Source: a virus (taxonomy: Duplodnaviria > Caudoviricetes). From it: DNA of 64,000 nt. A program made the translations under genes and the position numbers. Positions within the stretch are counted from its first letter, which is position 1. Each line of letters begins with the position of its first letter. This document shows, in pieces, positions 4,608-13,436 of the stretch. The DNA lies in IMG/VR virus record IMGVR_UViG_3300028888_000004, positions 1 through 64,000 of that record; one strand, given 5' to 3'. The notes under the pieces were generated by a model. That model ran no database searches. It was not told where the DNA came from and saw only the letters and a program-made list of their open reading frames with translations.

Positions 4608-5003
4608 TTAAATAATATCTGATAGTTTAACTCTGTTTTTCTTTATTTCAATCTGGTAAAGACCATCTTTATCAATTCTATATCCAAGACCATACATATA
4701 CTGTATGATTTCTCTTGGAGTAAAATCATCCAAAGATGCTTTCTTTTGTGGTTTTACTTCCTGAACTGTAGGAATAGAAACAATAGAAGTAGGAGATTCA
4801 GGTGTATCTGCTGTATCATTTTTAAGCAATGGCTTAATCTTTCTGCGATACACAGAGCATTTACCTCTTACATATCCATCAGATATTCCAACTTCTCTTG
4901 CTATTTCAGCATACTGCATGCCTTGAGAATGTAAATCCTCCCATGCCTTGACATCATCCCAACTAAATCTGGGATTTGCTCTGTTGTAAAGTTTATTACT
5001 CAT
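4608..5003 (-). CDS. HTH DNA-binding protein
   Basis: GMQYAEIAREVGISDGYVR helix-turn-helix. Confidence 0.75.
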   Translation of the reverse strand: MSNKLYNRANPRFSWDDVKAWEDLHSQGMQYAEIAREVGISDGYVRGKCSVYRRKIKPLLKNDTADTPESPTSIVSIPTVQEVKPQKKASLDDFTPREIIQYMYGLGYRIDKDGLYQIEIKKNRVKLSDII

Positions 5004-5892: not shown

Positions 5893-5957
5893 AATGCATT
5901 ATAATTTAAGTAGTAAAGCAAGACTATTTGTCTTACCTATGAGCAGTACAAATATAA

Positions 5958-6359
5958 TTATTTCTTGTTCATTATCCCCATGAAACTGAATTTTTTATTA
6001 TCAAATGTTATCCAGTCTTCTATGTCATTGGATTCTACTGGCTTATGACCAGGAGCTACAGCAAGAGTTATATGGCTTATCTTATTCTCTGAAGGCAAGT
6101 CAACAAGAGCTGCTATAGCATTATCTGATACTCCAAATCCTATAACATGAAACTTCACAGGGTGATGTATAATGAGATCAAGATACTTTCTTATATCTTG
6201 ATTCTTATGTGTCTTATGAAGTATTGTACAGTGGTCACAATACACTCTCCATCCTTTTAGATAAGGATTAGATAATATATCCCAGAACATTTCTTTTAGT
6301 CTTTTCTTCTCACTGTCAAGTAAGAATACTCCATAATAATTGTAATCTTTATCTTTCAT
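5958..6359 (-). CDS. 2H phosphoesterase (RNA 2',3'-cyclic phosphodiesterase-like)
   Basis: two HxT motifs (DHCTI, SHITL) at typical spacing; KPVESN C-terminal motif. Confidence 0.75.
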   Translation of the reverse strand: MKDKDYNYYGVFLLDSEKKRLKEMFWDILSNPYLKGWRVYCDHCTILHKTHKNQDIRKYLDLIIHHPVKFHVIGFGVSDNAIAALVDLPSENKISHITLAVAPGHKPVESNDIEDWITFDNKKFSFMGIMNKK

Positions 6360-6397
6360 AGAATTGTATTGTATTGTGTAACTGTTTTATCAACACC

Positions 6398-6434
6398 AAA
6401 AAAAGACAGCAAGGTGTTTATCCCTTGCTGTCTT
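6398..6434 (-). terminator. Rho-independent terminator
   Basis: AAGACAGCAAGG/CCTTGCTGTCTT stem followed by T-run. Confidence 0.85.
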
Positions 6435-7190
6435 AATCTATAAAGGCTGAGTCTTGACCTTTATTATCTTCATTTTCACCCATTGTCTGAGTTAGAACAC
6501 ACCCTTTTGAGGTAGAAGACATAGAGACGGATTCAGGTTCCGCAACCACTACACTCTGTTATATAGTCTACTCCTTTCCCAAGAACTTCTTGCCAGATTC
6601 ACAGGATGCCTCCTGCTAGAACTTTGGTACTTGTTTTAACTCATCGCAAGCCTTGCGAGCTTTTGATGTCTGCATATTACAGCAGAATAACTCTATTTTC
6701 GCAGAGTGTGCACAACACTTCTTGCAGTTAATAATTTTAATTATTAACAGATGACCTATTAGACTGTGTGGTTGTGCTTGTATGGAATGCTGCCTTTTGA
6801 GCAGTTTACCCATCAACACAGTCCTGTTACTTTCCTGCCAAGGATTTCACTACTATTACTATTTAACCTATCATTTCTGAAATCACAGTTTAGCAGACTG
6901 TGAGGTTGCTACACCTTAGGCTACAAGTATTCATTCAATGACGCTATAGACACGGCTAATGTCTTTTGGCATACATCGCACACTTCAATTGTCACTGTTA
7001 CCAGTCAAGAAGAGTTGGTCAAACCCTTCACATACTACTATCTCATCTGCCCGATGATACACCATAGTATGCTATGAAGCATGGCTTTCTTTTGGAGTAC
7101 TGTGAACCACAATACCGCAAACACACCTCTGTTAAGATGTATTTACTTTAATCCCATTGCTGGTTTATCCTATAGATGAGAAGCCCACCT
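6398..7190 (-). ncRNA. candidate large structured ncRNA (GOLLD/ROOL-like)
   Basis: ~800 nt without a credible ORF, dense nested hairpins, GNRA loop, repeated CTCAAAAGG loops, ends at a terminator. Confidence 0.55.
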
Positions 7191-7357
7191 AATAAATTGT
7201 ATTATTGCAATCACTGCAATTTAAATTTTTACTACTTCCTCATTGATGTAGTCAGTCAGTCTAGATATTTATACTCCTAAAACCTCAGAGTTGTATTGCC
7301 ATAAAGAATGACAAAAAAACACTTTTATTTATAGGGATAAGTGTGAACCCCGTCAGA

Positions 7358-7459
7358 TTATTCCTCTGTTTGCTCAAGGAATTTCTGGTATTGCTCATTT
7401 GAGTAGAACCACATTCCTTTGAAGAAGAAGAATGACTTCTCTGATGTATTGTTATCCAT
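7358..7459 (-). CDS. small protein (33 aa, not in ORF track)
   Basis: MDNNTSEKSFFFFKGMWFYSNEQYQKFLEQTEE*. Confidence 0.55.
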   Translation of the reverse strand: MDNNTSEKSFFFFKGMWFYSNEQYQKFLEQTEE

Positions 7460-7525
7460 AATAACTAGTATTTTATGGAATTGAAAGGACTCAAAAGACT
7501 CTGAAATTGTATTGCAATTCCAGAT

Positions 7526-7562
7526 AAAAAGAGCAAAGGCACCACCCGAAGATGGTGCCTTG
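7526..7562 (-). terminator. Rho-independent terminator
   Basis: AAGGCACCAT-cUUCGg-GTGGTGCCTT hairpin then T-rich tail. Confidence 0.85.
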
Positions 7563-7578
7563 ATTTCCCTGAAAGGGA

Positions 7579-7878
7579 TTAGAGGCTGAAGCCTCCAATC
7601 CTGTTGCTTTCGCCTGCTTTCATCAGGAGAAGGACATGCTCAGAGCTGCCTTCCATAACTGTGTCAGCCACAACTACTTCCGAGATGCTGAGCTGCTTGC
7701 CAGAGGCAATTTCCTCCTGAAGAGCCTTGCTGATGGCGCCCTTGGTAGCTGCACTATTATTCAGTGCAAAGAAGAGCTTGCCAGTCTTGGGATTCTTCAC
7801 AAAGTCAAGCTTTGTGGCGTGATTCCTACCGATGAATTCAACGACATTCTCCCTGGAGTTGATGGTAATGTTAGCCAT
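7579..7878 (-). CDS. conserved crAss-like small protein, first gene of the leftward block
   Basis: VKNPKTGKLFF motif; GC-richer codon usage; own terminator. Confidence 0.8.
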   Translation of the reverse strand: MANITINSRENVVEFIGRNHATKLDFVKNPKTGKLFFALNNSAATKGAISKALQEEIASGKQLSISEVVVADTVMEGSSEHVLLLMKAGESNRIGGFSL

Positions 7879-8056
7879 ACCTGTTGTTCACTTAACCTAA
7901 TCAGTGAGAGGTTCAATGGTTTATGATTCCCCCAATAATACTATGGAGACAAGAGTGTGGGGATACTCCCAATGTCTCAAGGGCTAGGGGGGGTAAGGGA
8001 TGGAGCATGTTACCTTCAAACAAACATAATTTTATTTTAAAATTTTTTATTTTTTA

Positions 8057-8098
8057 TTTTTGATTTTTGCTCAGTTTTACTTTTGATTTTTGCTCAGT
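8057..8098. repeat. direct repeat TTTTGATTTTTGCTCAGT x2 in T-rich tract
   Basis: two 18-nt copies just downstream of the G-tract at the strand switch. Confidence 0.8.
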
Positions 8099-8268
8099 GT
8101 ATTGGAAGCACTGCATAAAAGAAAGTCCCCAGAATTCTTGAGCTGAAAAGAAAACCAGGGACAGATGACTATGTCTTAAGTACGTATGACAAAGGTATGA
8201 AATATATTCTATATATCCAAATTTATTACATAACATTTTTGTCACACTAACTTTTTTATTTATTACTC

Positions 8269-8299
8269 TTGCTTTTTAATTTCTAGTTGTCTATATTTG
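8269..8299 (+). promoter_or_regulatory. Bacteroidota housekeeping-type promoter (-33 TTG / -7 TATATTTG)
   Basis: TAnnTTTG at 8292-8299 with TTG ~20 nt upstream. Confidence 0.7.
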
Positions 8300-8300
8300 C

Positions 8301-8610
8301 TCCAGATGACTATTAGGAATCTGCAAGTACTTATAGCTCTCAAGATTTCTTCTCAGTCTTCAAATAGGACATAAATGACTCTATGGAGTAGCTTTGGTAT
8401 CTGTACGTAGTATCGTTGAGGTAAATCAGATTTTAAGATATTCCACTAGGGGCTGAAAGGTGGATAACCGCCCAATGTTTGCTTCATAGAGCCACCCTAA
8501 GGCTACAGGGGGAAAGCGAGAAAATCGCAGGTAGCTCCTATTGTGATAGATTTGAGAATGATTAAATGAGATGAACATAAGGAATTAGGGAAAAATATAC
8601 CATATCTGGA
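8301..8610 (+). ncRNA. candidate ~310-nt structured ncRNA
   Basis: terminal stem TCCAGAT/ATCTGGA, 13-bp helix 8379-8391/8479-8491, AATAGGA/TCCTATT helix, several hairpins; directly after a promoter. Confidence 0.55.
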
Positions 8611-8807
8611 TGTCTTTTCATGCGGTGAGTATAATGTTGATAGTCTAAAAGTGTTATTATTTTGTGATGGTTGATAAAGGGTGAATGTCTTTTCTTGTTT
8701 GTTTAGTTGTTGATTCTGCGTATTCAGATGTGGTAAAATAAACACTATTATGCTGTGAAGTATAATAGTGTTTTCTTTATAAGTATTTTATTTCTAGTTC
8801 TAAATAT

Positions 8808-8815
8808 TATCTTTG
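8808..8815 (+). promoter_or_regulatory. -7 promoter element TATCTTTG
   Basis: TAnnTTTG 20 nt upstream of the 8835 start. Confidence 0.6.
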
Positions 8816-8834
8816 CGATATATATAATAAAGGT

Positions 8835-11600
8835 ATGGATAACTGGAGCAAACTGTCTATAAAGGATAGAGCAGAACTTATTAACTTGTATCTTGATGGA
8901 GGAGTGATGTCTATTTCTCAAATGAGAGATCATTATAATTCATTTGAAGATGGAGGATACAAGCCATCTGAGTCTATAAAGAGATACATCAAAAGCACTG
9001 AAGCATTCAGGTCTAAGTGGTATAAGGATGGAAATGGAATACCTACTGTTGGATATGGATTTACTGGAGAGTACTTCAAGAAAAAGTATCCTAATGGAAT
9101 GACACAAGAAGAAGCAGACAGAGAGTTTGAGAGGGTGATATCAAACTTTGCTTCTCTTGTTAAACGCCATACTCCAAACTATGATTCACTGTCTCAGAAT
9201 CAGAGAGACTCATTACTTTCTTATATGTATAATGTAGGGCCTGGAAACTACACAACCAGATCTCCAAAATTCCAGAGAGCTCTTAGAGAAAAGGATTGGA
9301 ATGCAGTTGCTCAGAATATGGATATTGGATATAATGACCAGAAGAATAAAGGACTGAGAAAAAGAAGAGATTATGAGAGGGCTTTATTCTTAGGTAATTC
9401 TTCATCTCCAGAGTCTCCAACACAGTATTATGATGACTACAAAGCACAAGTAGCTGCAAGTCCTAATGTACCTATGTCTGGGCAAGCTCCACCTATAGGT
9501 ATGCCTGCCTTATACTACAATACCTCTACTCACTTCAAAAAACAAGATTTTTCAACTCCTTTACCTGTTTTTGATCCAAATTCCCAATATAATCCTATGC
9601 TTGGAGTACCAAGTGGTAAGAAAAAGAGAAGGGTAGCAGAAGCTAATATTCCAAGCATTCCTTCTAATGAAGAAATTATAGGGAACCTCTTTGAAAGGCT
9701 GAATAATGAAAATATATTGGCATATGGAGGCATAGGAGAAGACGAAGATTTTATAGGTCCTGTTTTGAAGAAGCCTGTAGTAACAGTAAATAGTGATTTT
9801 AATCCTAGAATTTCTGATGTAACAAGCCAAAGATCTTCTATTGATGTTGTTCCAGCACTTAATACAATGTCAGAACAATCAATGAAAACTGCCTTTGAAG
9901 AACAAGCATTAAGAGACACATATAAAGATAAGTCTTATCGTGAAGTTCAGGAAATTTCTCCAGCTACTGTAAGTAGTAAAGTGGATACTATTGAGGGAAA
10001 TACATATGAAGATAAGAAAAAGGAATACTACAATTTAAGAGGAGATGCCGCCAAAGCCCTCCAACAAGACTTAGCTGATAATGGATATTATTCAGCTATA
10101 TTGGATGGTATGTCTAAGGAAGAAATAAAATCTTTGCAAAGAAAGCTGATAAATAAAGGGCTTTTATCTAATGCCAGAAATAGTGATGGAACTTACAAAG
10201 AAGAAGATGGTATAGTTGGAAACAAGACAAGGACTGCTTTTAATACATACTCAGTTGATGGTATTATAGGAAAAAACACAAAGTACGCTATTGAACTGAG
10301 GAATCAACAGCAAAATGGCTCTGTGGCTTCTTTTTCAGACTCATCAAAGGTAATAGCTCAGAAAGATAGGTGTGCAGCTTTTGTGGCACAAAGATTCAAC
10401 GAAGGAACTGGAGGAAAAGCAAGAGACTTAGGAGTTGGAGGGAACGCCTGGAATATGCTTAAAAATGTAGAGAATGCTGGAGGAGCAATGATTTACAATG
10501 TATTTGATAATAGCTACTTTGATGATGTTTCTACTGGAAATGTGGTAGCTAAAACAAAAAAAGCAATAGCTGCTGACCCCTTCAATGTAAACAACTTAAA
10601 ACCTGGAGATATAATTGGCATATTTAATCCTGGAACATCACATTATGCTGAAGTTCTTAAAAATGGAGATACATACAATTCTCATGTAGGAATATGTACT
10701 GGATATAAAGATGGAAAACCCATCATAGAACATGCTATAAATGGTAAAATTATTAAACAAACTGCTGATACAGTAAAGATAGCTGCAGTAGCCAGACCAG
10801 CAAATTCTAGTTTTTCTCAAATGAGCATAGGGAATTCTGAAGAACAAAAGTACTATGTAAGAGGTCAAGAAAATAACCAGCTTTTGAATGAGTACTCAAA
10901 AGGACTAAACAACTCTGCTAAATATATGAGTCAGGTATTTCCAGATGTAAATTTTGACAATATTCAGCAGATAGCCCTAAGTGTTCTCAAAAGAGAAACT
11001 GGATATATGACTAATACAGAGAAGATGCAAAGGGAAAGAAGTAAATTCAAAAACTTGGAATATGGTGCTAAGGACTTCTATAAATATAATATAAAAGGAG
11101 AATCTGAAGAGCAGAAATCAACAGATTTAGGAAAGTTCAAGTTGTCTTCATTAACATCAGGTGAAAGGCAAATGCTTGGTATTGAATCTCCACAGGACTT
11201 GGAAAACCCTACAATTCTCTCAAAGGCAGTGACTTATTACTTGGCAAAAAATTACAGCTATTTTCAAAACCTAGCTAAGAAATATCCAGAGTTAGGCTTG
11301 ACTGAGGAAGATATGGTCAATCTTACTACAATCAGTTATAATCAAGGTATGGATAGACTTAAGTCTATAGGATTTAAAAATGGTAAGATAGCTCCAGAAG
11401 AAATAAGAGCCATAAGAGATTCTGCAAATAACGATGCTGTTGTGGATGATATAAAATCAACTACTTGGGCAAGAGCTGGAAAGATAGGAGAGAAGATAGG
11501 TAAGGCAACAGGATGGTATACTAAATCTACTTCTTATTCTTCTTCTGCAAGAAGAGAAAGAGAGAATAATATATATGCACTATCAGATACTACAAAGTAA
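8835..11600 (+). CDS. multi-domain peptidoglycan hydrolase (GH24 lysozyme + PG-binding + CHAP/NlpC-P60-like + SLT-like), probable virion cargo
   Basis: E-X8-D-X5-T triad (EAFRSKWYKDGNGIPT); DGIVG/DGIIG PG-binding repeats; RCAAFV..GNAW..PGDII..SHVGI; KRETG..SYNQG. Confidence 0.85.
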   Translation: MDNWSKLSIKDRAELINLYLDGGVMSISQMRDHYNSFEDGGYKPSESIKRYIKSTEAFRSKWYKDGNGIPTVGYGFTGEYFKKKYPNGMTQEEADREFERVISNFASLVKRHTPNYDSLSQNQRDSLLSYMYNVGPGNYTTRSPKFQRALREKDWNAVAQNMDIGYNDQKNKGLRKRRDYERALFLGNSSSPESPTQYYDDYKAQVAASPNVPMSGQAPPIGMPALYYNTSTHFKKQDFSTPLPVFDPNSQYNPMLGVPSGKKKRRVAEANIPSIPSNEEIIGNLFERLNNENILAYGGIGEDEDFIGPVLKKPVVTVNSDFNPRISDVTSQRSSIDVVPALNTMSEQSMKTAFEEQALRDTYKDKSYREVQEISPATVSSKVDTIEGNTYEDKKKEYYNLRGDAAKALQQDLADNGYYSAILDGMSKEEIKSLQRKLINKGLLSNARNSDGTYKEEDGIVGNKTRTAFNTYSVDGIIGKNTKYAIELRNQQQNGSVASFSDSSKVIAQKDRCAAFVAQRFNEGTGGKARDLGVGGNAWNMLKNVENAGGAMIYNVFDNSYFDDVSTGNVVAKTKKAIAADPFNVNNLKPGDIIGIFNPGTSHYAEVLKNGDTYNSHVGICTGYKDGKPIIEHAINGKIIKQTADTVKIAAVARPANSSFSQMSIGNSEEQKYYVRGQENNQLLNEYSKGLNNSAKYMSQVFPDVNFDNIQQIALSVLKRETGYMTNTEKMQRERSKFKNLEYGAKDFYKYNIKGESEEQKSTDLGKFKLSSLTSGERQMLGIESPQDLENPTILSKAVTYYLAKNYSYFQNLAKKYPELGLTEEDMVNLTTISYNQGMDRLKSIGFKNGKIAPEEIRAIRDSANNDAVVDDIKSTTWARAGKIGEKIGKATGWYTKSTSYSSSARRERENNIYALSDTTK

Positions 11601-12261
11601 TATCTGATAGTGATATATTTTTATTAAATCTACATAAGTCAACTTTTGTACTTATACCAGATACTTTTCCAGATTCAGAAAACTGCCATATAGAATATTT
11701 ATGTTTTAATCCAGAGGCAGTAATTATTTGAGGTTCTTTTTCTCCATATCTACCTATATATAATATATGGTTATTTAGAAAAGGGCTACAGACAGTGTTA
11801 TAACTACGCTGTGTTCCGTATATTATTGGATATTTACCATACTTATCTTTAACAAGTTGCATAAACTTCTTAATGTTTTTTATGGCAGTAGCTTTATTAT
11901 AAGAAGAGGATAAGGCAATTTCTATATCCAGCATTGGTATAAGATTGAATTTGTACATAGAAACGACAGAATCAAAGTGCTTGAATTGCTTTTCTGGAGA
12001 GGATTTAGTGCTAAAGTAATGATAAACTCCTACATTCAATTTGTTCTTTAAAGCATTATTTATGTTATATTCAAATTGTTTATCTGTGTATGTAGCTCCT
12101 TCAGTAGCTTTTATATACACAAACTTAATATTTGAATCTTTAGATACTTTTTCCCAATGTATTTTTCCCTGATGGTGTGAAACATCTATCCCATCATAAC
12201 TTTGAGAAAAGCCGAGGACATTAATTAATATGCAGATAATAAAAGAAATCAACTTTTTCAT
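11590..12261 (-). CDS. GH25 lysozyme with signal peptide
   Basis: GIDVSHHQG, FVYIKATEG, GVYHYF, LDIE, WQFSE, VDL motifs; N-terminal Sec signal. Confidence 0.92.
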   Translation of the reverse strand: MKKLISFIICILINVLGFSQSYDGIDVSHHQGKIHWEKVSKDSNIKFVYIKATEGATYTDKQFEYNINNALKNKLNVGVYHYFSTKSSPEKQFKHFDSVVSMYKFNLIPMLDIEIALSSSYNKATAIKNIKKFMQLVKDKYGKYPIIYGTQRSYNTVCSPFLNNHILYIGRYGEKEPQIITASGLKHKYSIWQFSESGKVSGISTKVDLCRFNKNISLSDITL

Positions 12262-12392
12262 AAGTTCAAAATAAATTAAACTGTAACTCTATATTGTAAA
12301 TATAAGTATAATATCATAAGAAGTAAAATATTTATTGCACAATTTCAATAATTTTATTAATATTGCACAAACCAATAAATTTATAATGCATT

Positions 12393-12824
12393 ATGTCTAC
12401 AATGTCTTTTAAGGAAGGATTCATGACTTTCTACCTTCCAGCAATCATGATTGTTTGTGGCTTTATTGTAGCCGGTACTTGTCTTTCTGCAGGACCTTTT
12501 ATTCCAGTAGGTCTCAGTGGAATTATTGCACTTGCTATTATTGCTTATACTGCAGTAGCCCTTATTAAAAGAGGTAAAAAGGTGCAGGAACTTAATGACA
12601 CTATTTCTGCAGAAGAAAGCAGGGTTGAAAGTATTAACAAGAGGAATGCAAGTGATCTTGCAAAGAAGGATTCCATTATAGCTGAGCTTAAGGATACTGT
12701 TTCTGTACTTCAGAAGAAGGTGAATGATTTTGAAACAGCTGCAAAGGAGTCTACTGTCAAGGAAGAAGTAAAGACTGAGGAGAAGAAGCCTGCTAAGAAG
12801 ACAACTAAAACTACTAAGAAATAA
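12393..12824 (+). CDS. membrane protein with coiled coil and Lys-rich tail
   Basis: two TMs, coiled coil, KKPAKKTTKTTKK. Confidence 0.8.
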   Translation: MSTMSFKEGFMTFYLPAIMIVCGFIVAGTCLSAGPFIPVGLSGIIALAIIAYTAVALIKRGKKVQELNDTISAEESRVESINKRNASDLAKKDSIIAELKDTVSVLQKKVNDFETAAKESTVKEEVKTEEKKPAKKTTKTTKK

Positions 12825-12832
12825 CATTGTCA

Positions 12833-12906
12833 GGTCCCATAACTCAGTAGGTTAGAGTGCCTGACTCATAATCAGGGAGTCCAAGGTTCAAGTCCTTGTG
12901 GGACCA
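12833..12906 (+). tRNA. tRNA-CAT (Ile2 or elongator Met)
   Basis: GGTCCCA/TGGGACC acceptor, CCTGA-CTCATAA-TCAGG anticodon arm. Confidence 0.93.
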
Positions 12907-12909
12907 CAT

Positions 12910-12980
12910 TGAGGTGTGGTGTAATGGCAGCACCAGGGATTTTGGTTCCCTTAGATAGAGTTCGAGTCTCTACACCTCAA
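12910..12980 (+). tRNA. tRNA-Gln(TTG)
   Basis: TGAGGTG/CACCTCA acceptor, AGGGA-TTTTGGT-TCCCT anticodon arm. Confidence 0.92.
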
Positions 12981-12984
12981 CAAA

Positions 12985-13059
12985 GCCTCTTTAGTATAAA
13001 GGTTATTATAACTGATTTGTAATCAGTAGATATTGGTTCGATTCCGATAAGAGGCTCCA
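12985..13059 (+). tRNA. tRNA-Thr(TGT)
   Basis: GCCTCTT/AAGAGGC acceptor, ACTGA-TTTGTAA-TCAGT arm, encoded CCA. Confidence 0.92.
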
Positions 13060-13072
13060 TAAACTGGATTCA

Positions 13073-13231
13073 ATGGAAGAAGGTAGCAGGAAAATAGTGG
13101 ACATCATTGTATGTAAACACATGAGAGAAGTAGTCAATCAGATTAACTTCAATAGATTGACTAAAGAGGACATTGTGCAGATAGTGAAGGGTGATTCAGA
13201 ATGGTATATACTTTATCAGAGAAATGCCTAG
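13073..13231 (+). CDS. small hypothetical protein (52 aa, not in ORF track)
   Basis: MEEGSRKIVDIIVCKHMREVVNQINFNRLTKEDIVQIVKG...; overlaps the next start. Confidence 0.7.
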   Translation: MEEGSRKIVDIIVCKHMREVVNQINFNRLTKEDIVQIVKGDSEWYILYQRNA

Positions 13232-13436
13232 TTATGAATTAAAAGTGGAGTTGAATAATCTCCATTCAGAGTATGACAAAGAGCCTGTCTACTACTGCAA
13301 AAGATGCCTGTCACTTGCTGTGAAATCTGTTGGGCAATATGACTATTGTGACAGTTGTAGTTGCACTGACATTGGTACTACTGATATCTTCACTTGGGAA
13401 GAGATGTATAAGAATAAGTACGGTAAAGAATTTTAA
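13224..13436 (+). CDS. Zn-ribbon protein
   Basis: YCKRCLSL...YCDSCS CxxC pairs; ATG start at 13224. Confidence 0.8.
   Translation: MPSYELKVELNNLHSEYDKEPVYYCKRCLSLAVKSVGQYDYCDSCSCTDIGTTDIFTWEEMYKNKYGKEF

Follow-up and report, generated by a model that had tools for sequence, protein, structure and literature searches.

Organization of the locus

The DNA analysed in this study (the window) comprises bases 1-64000 of a 102,496-bp, circularly assembled virus record from a gut/rumen crAss-like phage. The 120-bp end repeat of this record ('DTR') falls inside coding sequence and is therefore an assembly overlap. TerL and the portal protein matched crAss-type PHROGs (phrog_6681 and phrog_6547, respectively), and the closest GenBank phage is cr116_1 (Crassvirales, Steigviridae), with a TerL identity of 57%. 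Minus-strand genes finish at 7878, plus-strand late genes begin at 8835, and the RNA locus described here lies in the gap between them (Table 1). Downstream of the RNA are the gene for a lysin (peptidoglycan hydrolase, 921 aa) and then about 58 kb of plus-strand late genes.

Among the minus-strand features, ORF99 is a clade-restricted gene with 18 homologues at 53-96% identity and gave no Pfam or PHROG match. Its product was considered as a possible protein partner of the RNA; the AlphaFold model was beta-rich (pLDDT 78.7) and gave weak OB-fold-like matches, with E values of 0.2 or higher in Foldseek and Z scores of 3.6 or lower in VIA. Further upstream, a GOLLD-like RNA was identified by a full-model match to RF02032 (93.7 bits, E 1.7e-24), a score below the 150-bit gathering score. 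It lies 1.5 kb from the structured RNA, on the opposite strand, and its region is kept across the clade at 79-93% identity in L064, L069, L071, L072 and L074. Insertions of 0.5-1 kb were observed in L069 and L072 between window positions 7189 and 7310. The 133-aa protein encoded just downstream of the GOLLD-like RNA, near tRNA-Arg, gave a sub-threshold match to PF08302 (tRNA ligase cyclic phosphodiesterase domain, E 1.6e-4), which may point to RNA repair.

The intergenic region carries two divergent promoters, back to back, with a palindrome between them. In relatives the palindrome is perfect (TAACA-N4-TGTTA); it was found in four of the six lineages, being missing from L071 and L076, and is a candidate operator or activator site that a regulator may bind. 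Downstream of the minus-strand promoter, at 8125-8162, a covarying hairpin followed by a U-run was observed, which may be an attenuator or encode a very small RNA (about 60 nt). The minus promoter/hairpin element is kept by five lineages and deleted in L071 and L072.

Near ORF99 lies a near-invariant G-rich element, more conserved than the RNA or ORF99 and sometimes called as a false N-terminal extension of ORF99 (MLHPLPPLALE). Four independent contigs (G002, G003, L076 and L077) begin within this element, which may mark a physical end of the genome, a pac site or an assembly break point. An AT-rich tract with direct repeats occupies 8030-8100, and the minimum of the cumulative GC skew falls at 7-8 kb. 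There is thus some indirect support for a position of the RNA near a possible genome end.

Table 1. Features of the RNA locus and its surroundings, with positions in the window.
Feature	Position	Strand	Description
133-aa protein	5958-6359	-	just downstream of GOLLD-like RNA, near tRNA-Arg
GOLLD-like RNA	6444-6823, probably to about 7190-7300	-	RF02032 match
ORF99	7579-7878	-	clade-restricted gene
G-rich element	7958-8015		GGGGATACTCCC...GGGCTAGGGGGGGTAAGGG...
Full-consensus promoter	8221-8190	-	TTTG-N20-TACCTTTG; back to back with RNA promoter
Palindrome	8231-8244		TAACA-N4-TGTCA; between the two divergent promoters
RNA promoter	8269-8299	+	-33 TTG 8269-8271; 20-nt spacer; -7 TATATTTG 8292-8299
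Structured RNA core	8303-8608	+	about 306 nt; covariance-model matches, covariation
H1	8303-8306/8605-8608	+	rod
H2	8308-8314/8596-8603	+	rod
H3	8320-8326/8585-8591	+	rod
H4	8330-8334/8577-8581	+	rod
H5	8337-8342/8567-8572	+	rod
H6	8348-8369/8536-8561	+	rod
AGUA strand of putative bulged-G module	8326-8329	+	within invariant AAGUACUU, 8325-8332
GAA strand of putative bulged-G module	8582-8584	+	within invariant AAGGAAUUA, 8579-8587
Junction strand	directly after H6	+	CAUAAAU
H7	8376-8391/8479-8494	+	closes central domain 8376-8494
H8/H9 arm	inside H7	+	conserved bulge YGAGGKAAR
H10	8441-8452	+	hairpin inside H7
H11	8459-8472	+	hairpin inside H7
H12	8495-8510	+	3' of H7
H13	8516-8528	+	3' of H7
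5' arm of candidate pseudoknot	8502-8506	+	GCUAC; H12 loop, complementary to 8531-8535
3' arm of candidate pseudoknot	8531-8535	+	GUAGC; in GGUAGCUCC, invariant in 12 of 12
3' domain	8609-8739	+	U-rich; lineage-variable, 130-230 nt in relatives
Intrinsic terminator	8740-8781	+	13-15-bp stem; GNRA loop (GUGA; GAGA in some lineages); U-run
-7 box of putative lysin promoter	8808-8815	+	TATCTTTG; lysin ATG at 8835

Architecture of the RNA core

The core folds with its extreme 5' end paired to a segment about 300 nt downstream, which creates a long rod (H1-H6). The rod leads to a junction with H7, H12 and H13, and H7 encloses the H8/H9 arm and the hairpins H10 and H11, with 13 helices in total. An earlier note, made from the sequence of the window, had proposed a multibranched non-coding RNA of about 310 nt on the plus strand, and the covariation of the fold in six lineages bears this out. 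All the elements listed in that note are present in the sequence at the positions given there. Its closing stem pairs CCAGA (8302-8306) with TCTGG (8605-8609), its AATAGGA/TCCTATT helix is the top of H6 (8363-8369 with 8536-8542), its 13-bp helix is H7, and its hairpins GGTGG/CCGCC, CCCT/AGGG and GCGA/TCGC are H11, H12 and H13, respectively.

The same note had described a promoter that no ORF follows, and indeed no plus-strand ORF of at least 30 aa occurs in 8292-8612. No ORF on either strand is conserved across the lineages, and an 80-aa ORF on the minus strand is private to the window's own sequence; a coding reading of the region was rejected on these grounds.

Phage lineages carrying the RNA

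A total of 12 sequences from six phage lineages, all from uncultured material, were used for the comparative analysis. TerL-based loci yielded G001-G003, three near-identical relatives whose nucleotide identity over 8176-8598 is 81%. Further members were identified through homologues of the 921-aa lysin and the contigs encoding them, and L074 and L075 were added by a two-block pattern scan of JGI metagenomes. Covariance models built from these alignments scored 158-418 bits on the 12 loci.

Comparison between the lineages revealed a core identity of 62-88%, and TerL stays 88-90% identical at the protein level across the RNA-bearing lineages. Between the window phage and the L072 phage, TerL is 88% and the RNA 64% identical, which indicates selection on the fold and not on the sequence. 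The search for homologues in crAss relatives that the earlier note had proposed thus found the RNA in six lineages with its helices kept. In all six, the RNA directly precedes the lysin and late genes and shares their direction; four of these lineages were found via the lysin gene, which biases the constant adjacency of RNA and lysin. A search for a second copy in the phage's own genome found none, so the RNA is present there once.

Searches for known and distant relatives

Comparison with Rfam 15 (cmscan, 4227 families, permissive filters), a check that the earlier note had suggested, revealed no family overlapping the core at 8292-8612, and a scan at gathering score gave no match at the locus. 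GOLLD (RF02032) did not match within 8292-8612 at E up to 10, and ROOL (RF03087) matched neither in 5900-9000 at E up to 10 nor in the window at gathering score. Models of 6S, 6S-Flavo, Y RNA and YrlA gave no match. The Ro60 protein (TROVE) is absent from the 102-kb phage genome, as judged by a search in which the positive controls matched; a host Ro60 is possible. RVT_1 gave no match in the phage genome, which speaks against a retron msr-msd or a DGR template. A T-box was considered and rejected, since AAUUAGGG and GGUGG..CCGCC both occur but lie apart, and no T-box model matched.

Searches beyond the six lineages were likewise negative. Three family members used as blastn queries found no match among GenBank phages. 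When IMG/VR was scanned for patterns from conserved blocks, all matches apart from the three known relatives were due to chance, and a lysin-based search for relatives in IMG/VR returned nothing. In 22 distant crAss-like records (TerL at most 58%, cr116_1 included), models R1-R3 gave noise of at most 12.5 bits. Model R3 found no match in 151 sampled Bacteroidales genomes, a weak result since few candidates were scored per genome. A pattern scan of GTDB gave 19 matches against about 27 expected by chance (our own estimate); none of these scored with the RNA model or Rfam at the matched position, and they were discarded as chance. A full-text search of the literature found no description of such an RNA. 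The RNA is confined to one clade, at about the genus level.

Some observations were made in more distant phages. In L036, whose TerL is 57% identical, a 12-bit match to the RNA model was found at 4667-4796, in a 732-nt ORF-free gap; it is too weak for homology. Like the RNA, this match has a hairpin with a UGAGGUAA bulge. ORF-free gaps of 3.2-3.6 kb lie upstream of TerL in two more distant relatives (L016 1433-4618 and L023 662-4234), and in L016 the TerL match stretches over 3.3 kb (10001-13303) for 762 aa. Large RNAs, introns or another genetic code are possible explanations for these oddities of L016 and L023.

Covariation and strand

In the model-fitted alignment 93.6% of cells were paired and 46 of 94 pairs had changed on both sides. 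When the pairing was slid by 1-3 columns as a control, 40-47% of cells were paired and 4-11 pairs were double-changed, and none of 500 shuffles reached the observed covariation value. Because a model-fitted alignment leans to the model's own structure, the analysis was repeated blind to structure, with a MAFFT alignment and the MFE structure predicted from just the window sequence. Of the cells, 83.5% were then paired, and 35 pairs were double-changed; the slid controls reached 39-50% and 10-20, respectively. RNAalifold, run on the blind alignment, arrived at this architecture too and showed compensation in 41 of 79 pairs. H7 was among the helices recovered from the blind alignment; 8 of its 14 pairs were double-changed and 98% of its cells paired. 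The outermost closing stem is the weakest part of the fold (85% paired in the model-fitted and 58% in the blind alignment). The covariation check that the earlier note had proposed therefore revealed many compensatory changes and a fold kept in six lineages.

G-U combinations occupied 12% of cells across the relatives and A-C combinations 2.2%, and the alifold energy was lower for the plus strand (-55.2) than for the minus strand (-42.7); both results place the RNA on the plus strand, in keeping with the G-U pairs that had been read earlier as favouring this strand.

Transcription signals

The pattern TTG-N20-TAT(A/G)TTTG, which we take to be the Bacteroidota (Bacteroides) promoter consensus, does not vary among the six lineages, and neither does its distance from the 5' end of the RNA, so that the promoter TTG/TATATTTG recognized in the window proved to be a conserved element. 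The rod starts at the predicted transcription start, about 8303-8305. Genome-wide, the promoter pattern was found 5 times against 5.2 expected by chance, and full-consensus promoters are scarce in the late region. For crAss001, the host's RNA polymerase is believed to be responsible for middle and late gene transcription (PMC8375218).

Sequence conservation collapses past about 8600, where the core gives way to the U-rich 3' domain, often closed by a long lineage-specific hairpin. The intrinsic terminator was found in all six lineages with several compensatory changes, and its hairpin forms in the MFE structure of all seven full transcripts folded; no alternative pairing with the terminator is conserved among the lineages. 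In L071, where the gene caller had set the lysin start too early, the terminator is present as well. All lineages have a TAnnTTTG box after the terminator, although the 19-25 nt from box to ATG vary; this contrast speaks for a real promoter element, presumably the lysin gene's own. The earlier view that the RNA is not a simple leader of the next gene agrees with this arrangement, in which a conserved terminator intervenes and the lysin keeps its TAnnTTTG box. In the block 8738-8837 (terminator, putative lysin promoter and 5' UTR), identity between lineages is about 95% even where the RNA cores share only 62-68%, a sign that this joint is either very strongly constrained or has recombined recently.

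Folding energy alone is unremarkable at this locus (MFE z about -1.5 on both strands, not significant), as is the frequency of the promoter, and the case therefore rests on the relatives: support above chance comes from the compensated fold in six lineages, the fixed promoter distance and the kept terminator.

Invariant module and candidate pseudoknot

Between H3 and H4 in the rod, an AGUA strand faces a GAA strand. The blocks containing them, AAGUACUU and AAGGAAUUA, are unchanged in all 12 sequences, and the neighbouring helices covary. AGUA opposite GAA with Watson-Crick flanks, as found here with H3 and H4, corresponds to what we take to be the established sarcin-ricin/loop-E consensus, and the pair is a putative bulged-G module of that type.

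The earlier note had also suggested a pseudoknot between the loop of H12 and a segment downstream. The complementarity is there, GCUAC facing GUAGC, and the two arms may form a pseudoknot; true covariation between them was not found among the 12 sequences. Both arms are essentially invariant, the sole variant (GCUGC in L074) retains a G-U pair, and GUAGC has an alternative partner in GGAGCU near 8449-8454, for which reasons the pseudoknot is unproven.

Proposed role of the RNA and alternative explanations

Overall, our analysis supports well a new RNA family with 13 helices, an invariant module of the putative bulged-G type and a fold kept where the most diverged of these otherwise nearly identical phages share only about 62-68% of the sequence. 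As to its role, we favour with moderate confidence the view that 8269-8781 is an independent gene for a stand-alone, trans-acting RNA that serves as a protein-binding scaffold or decoy. Transcription, the RNA ends, action in trans and protein binding are all inferred, as follows. Host RNA polymerase would start at the Bacteroidota-type promoter, at about 8303-8305, and stop near 8781 at the intrinsic terminator, giving a primary transcript of about 480 nt, whose variable 3' tail is probably trimmed off or not needed. The folded RNA would act in trans during infection, a host or phage protein being bound via the invariant module and the junction loops.

In stable stand-alone RNAs the 5' end is typically paired with the 3' end. 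This pairing, the conserved promoter, the efficient terminator and the separate lysin promoter together point to a discrete, stable, stand-alone RNA, and the invariant module and junction strands look like partner contacts, which is why a protein-binding scaffold or decoy is favoured. The RNA resembles 6S RNA and Y RNA/YrlA in having a paired-end rod, an invariant internal-loop module and a variable or branched apical part; it differs from them in that its apical part is a multi-helix junction instead of a bubble or a tRNA-like module, and in that no model of these RNAs matched. Some points count against a stand-alone RNA. There is no obvious need for an unconserved tail of 130-230 nt before the terminator, the structural matches of the adjacent ORF99 were weak, the MFE z-score by itself is not significant, and the constant place and direction ahead of the lysin and late genes also fit a role in cis.

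Such a role in cis is the main rival, and we consider it rather unlikely. The nascent RNA, alone as in HK022 put or together with a phage or host factor, would gate the late region by driving read-through of the terminator into the lysin and morphogenesis genes. The layout agrees with this, as a promoter, a non-coding transcript, a strong terminator, a peptidoglycan hydrolase gene and about 58 kb of late genes follow one another, with promoter, terminator and lysin ATG so arranged in six lineages and the position and direction of the RNA unvarying. In lambda PR'-6S RNA-tR' and HK022 put, too, a promoter of the host type, a non-coding transcript and a terminator directly precede a lysis-type gene and the morphogenesis genes. 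Processive antitermination (put, Q) is distance-independent, to which the variable spacer between RNA and terminator is suited, and the scarcity of full-consensus promoters in the late region also fits. However, the lysin's own TAnnTTTG box stands directly after the terminator, so that dependence of this gene on read-through is not indicated by the sequence, the box being recognized as a motif only. Lambda differs further in that its 6S RNA has no conserved fold, whereas here the fold is conserved and the downstream gene keeps a promoter box. The known put and EAR elements are 70-120 nt long (in HK022 put, two hairpins within about 70 nt), against about 306 nt with paired ends in this case. 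In addition, an antiterminator gene was not identified, and there is no conserved alternative pairing of the terminator, which is present in every MFE structure.

Assembly of the RNA with itself is quite improbable in our estimate. The RNA would multimerize without protein through self-complementary segments, alongside the GOLLD-like RNA. GOLLD and ROOL, phage RNAs encoded near tRNA genes, provide the precedent, as they form protein-free cages (bioRxiv 10.1101/2024.12.08.627333). The present RNA is, like them, phage-encoded, intricate, supported by covariation and located near tRNA and lysis genes, and a clade-conserved GOLLD-like RNA lies close by on the other strand. Several of its invariant stretches are palindromic (AAGUACUU, AGCU in GGUAGCUCC, and AAUU). 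Nevertheless, it matches neither model, its strand is opposite to that of the neighbouring GOLLD-like RNA, and about 306 nt is far below the 580-800 nt of GOLLD and ROOL. The conservation of AAGUACUU is explained at least as well by the intramolecular AGUA/GAA module, and intermolecular contacts have no covariation support.

A part in replication or packaging near a genome end or origin, where the RNA would prime or activate an origin in the manner of ColE1 RNA II or the T7/T4 transcripts or would act in packaging, is highly improbable. The minimum of the GC skew, the AT-rich repeats and G-rich element just upstream, the start of four independent contigs in the latter and the T-rich spacer all speak for it. 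Yet the switch in GC skew coincides with the switch in gene direction and is hence unspecific, the 'DTR' is an assembly overlap, the RNA would be released by a strong terminator, and a covarying fold of 13 helices is superfluous for a primer transcript. We found nothing in favour of the packaging RNA suggested in the earlier note. The gene for phi29 pRNA, another non-coding RNA of a phage, also has its own promoter and also lies near what may be a genome end, but pRNA is 174 nt long, against about 306 nt here, and of unrelated fold, the RNA described here has no Rfam match, and its phage has a standard large terminase and portal, for which a packaging RNA has no precedent.

Finally, a ligand-sensing riboswitch or attenuator controlling the terminator can scarcely be credited, for although a conserved fold does precede both a terminator and a gene, 130-230 nt of variable spacer lie between fold and terminator, no mutually exclusive pairing was found (the terminator forms in all MFE structures), the lysin gene has a promoter of its own and no Rfam family matched even at E up to 10.

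Implications for crAss-like phages

The immediate reach of the finding is limited by the narrowness of the family and its uncultured source. The crAss-like phages are among the most abundant gut viruses, and to our knowledge almost nothing is known of their non-coding RNAs. RNAs as large and complex as this one usually have a specific role, whether in protein binding, as a ribozyme or in assembly into larger structures. Besides the scaffold or decoy that we prefer, there is an outside chance, unlikely in our judgement, of a new RNA device at the head of the late region, either a large put-like antiterminator acting on Bacteroidota RNA polymerase over about 58 kb of late genes or a compact self-assembler that works with the GOLLD-like RNA. 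The RNA lies where the early and late gene blocks meet, a regulatory hub, with the GOLLD-like RNA next to it, and this location therefore makes it a tractable entry to the control of late transcription and to the purpose of 'ornate' phage RNAs.
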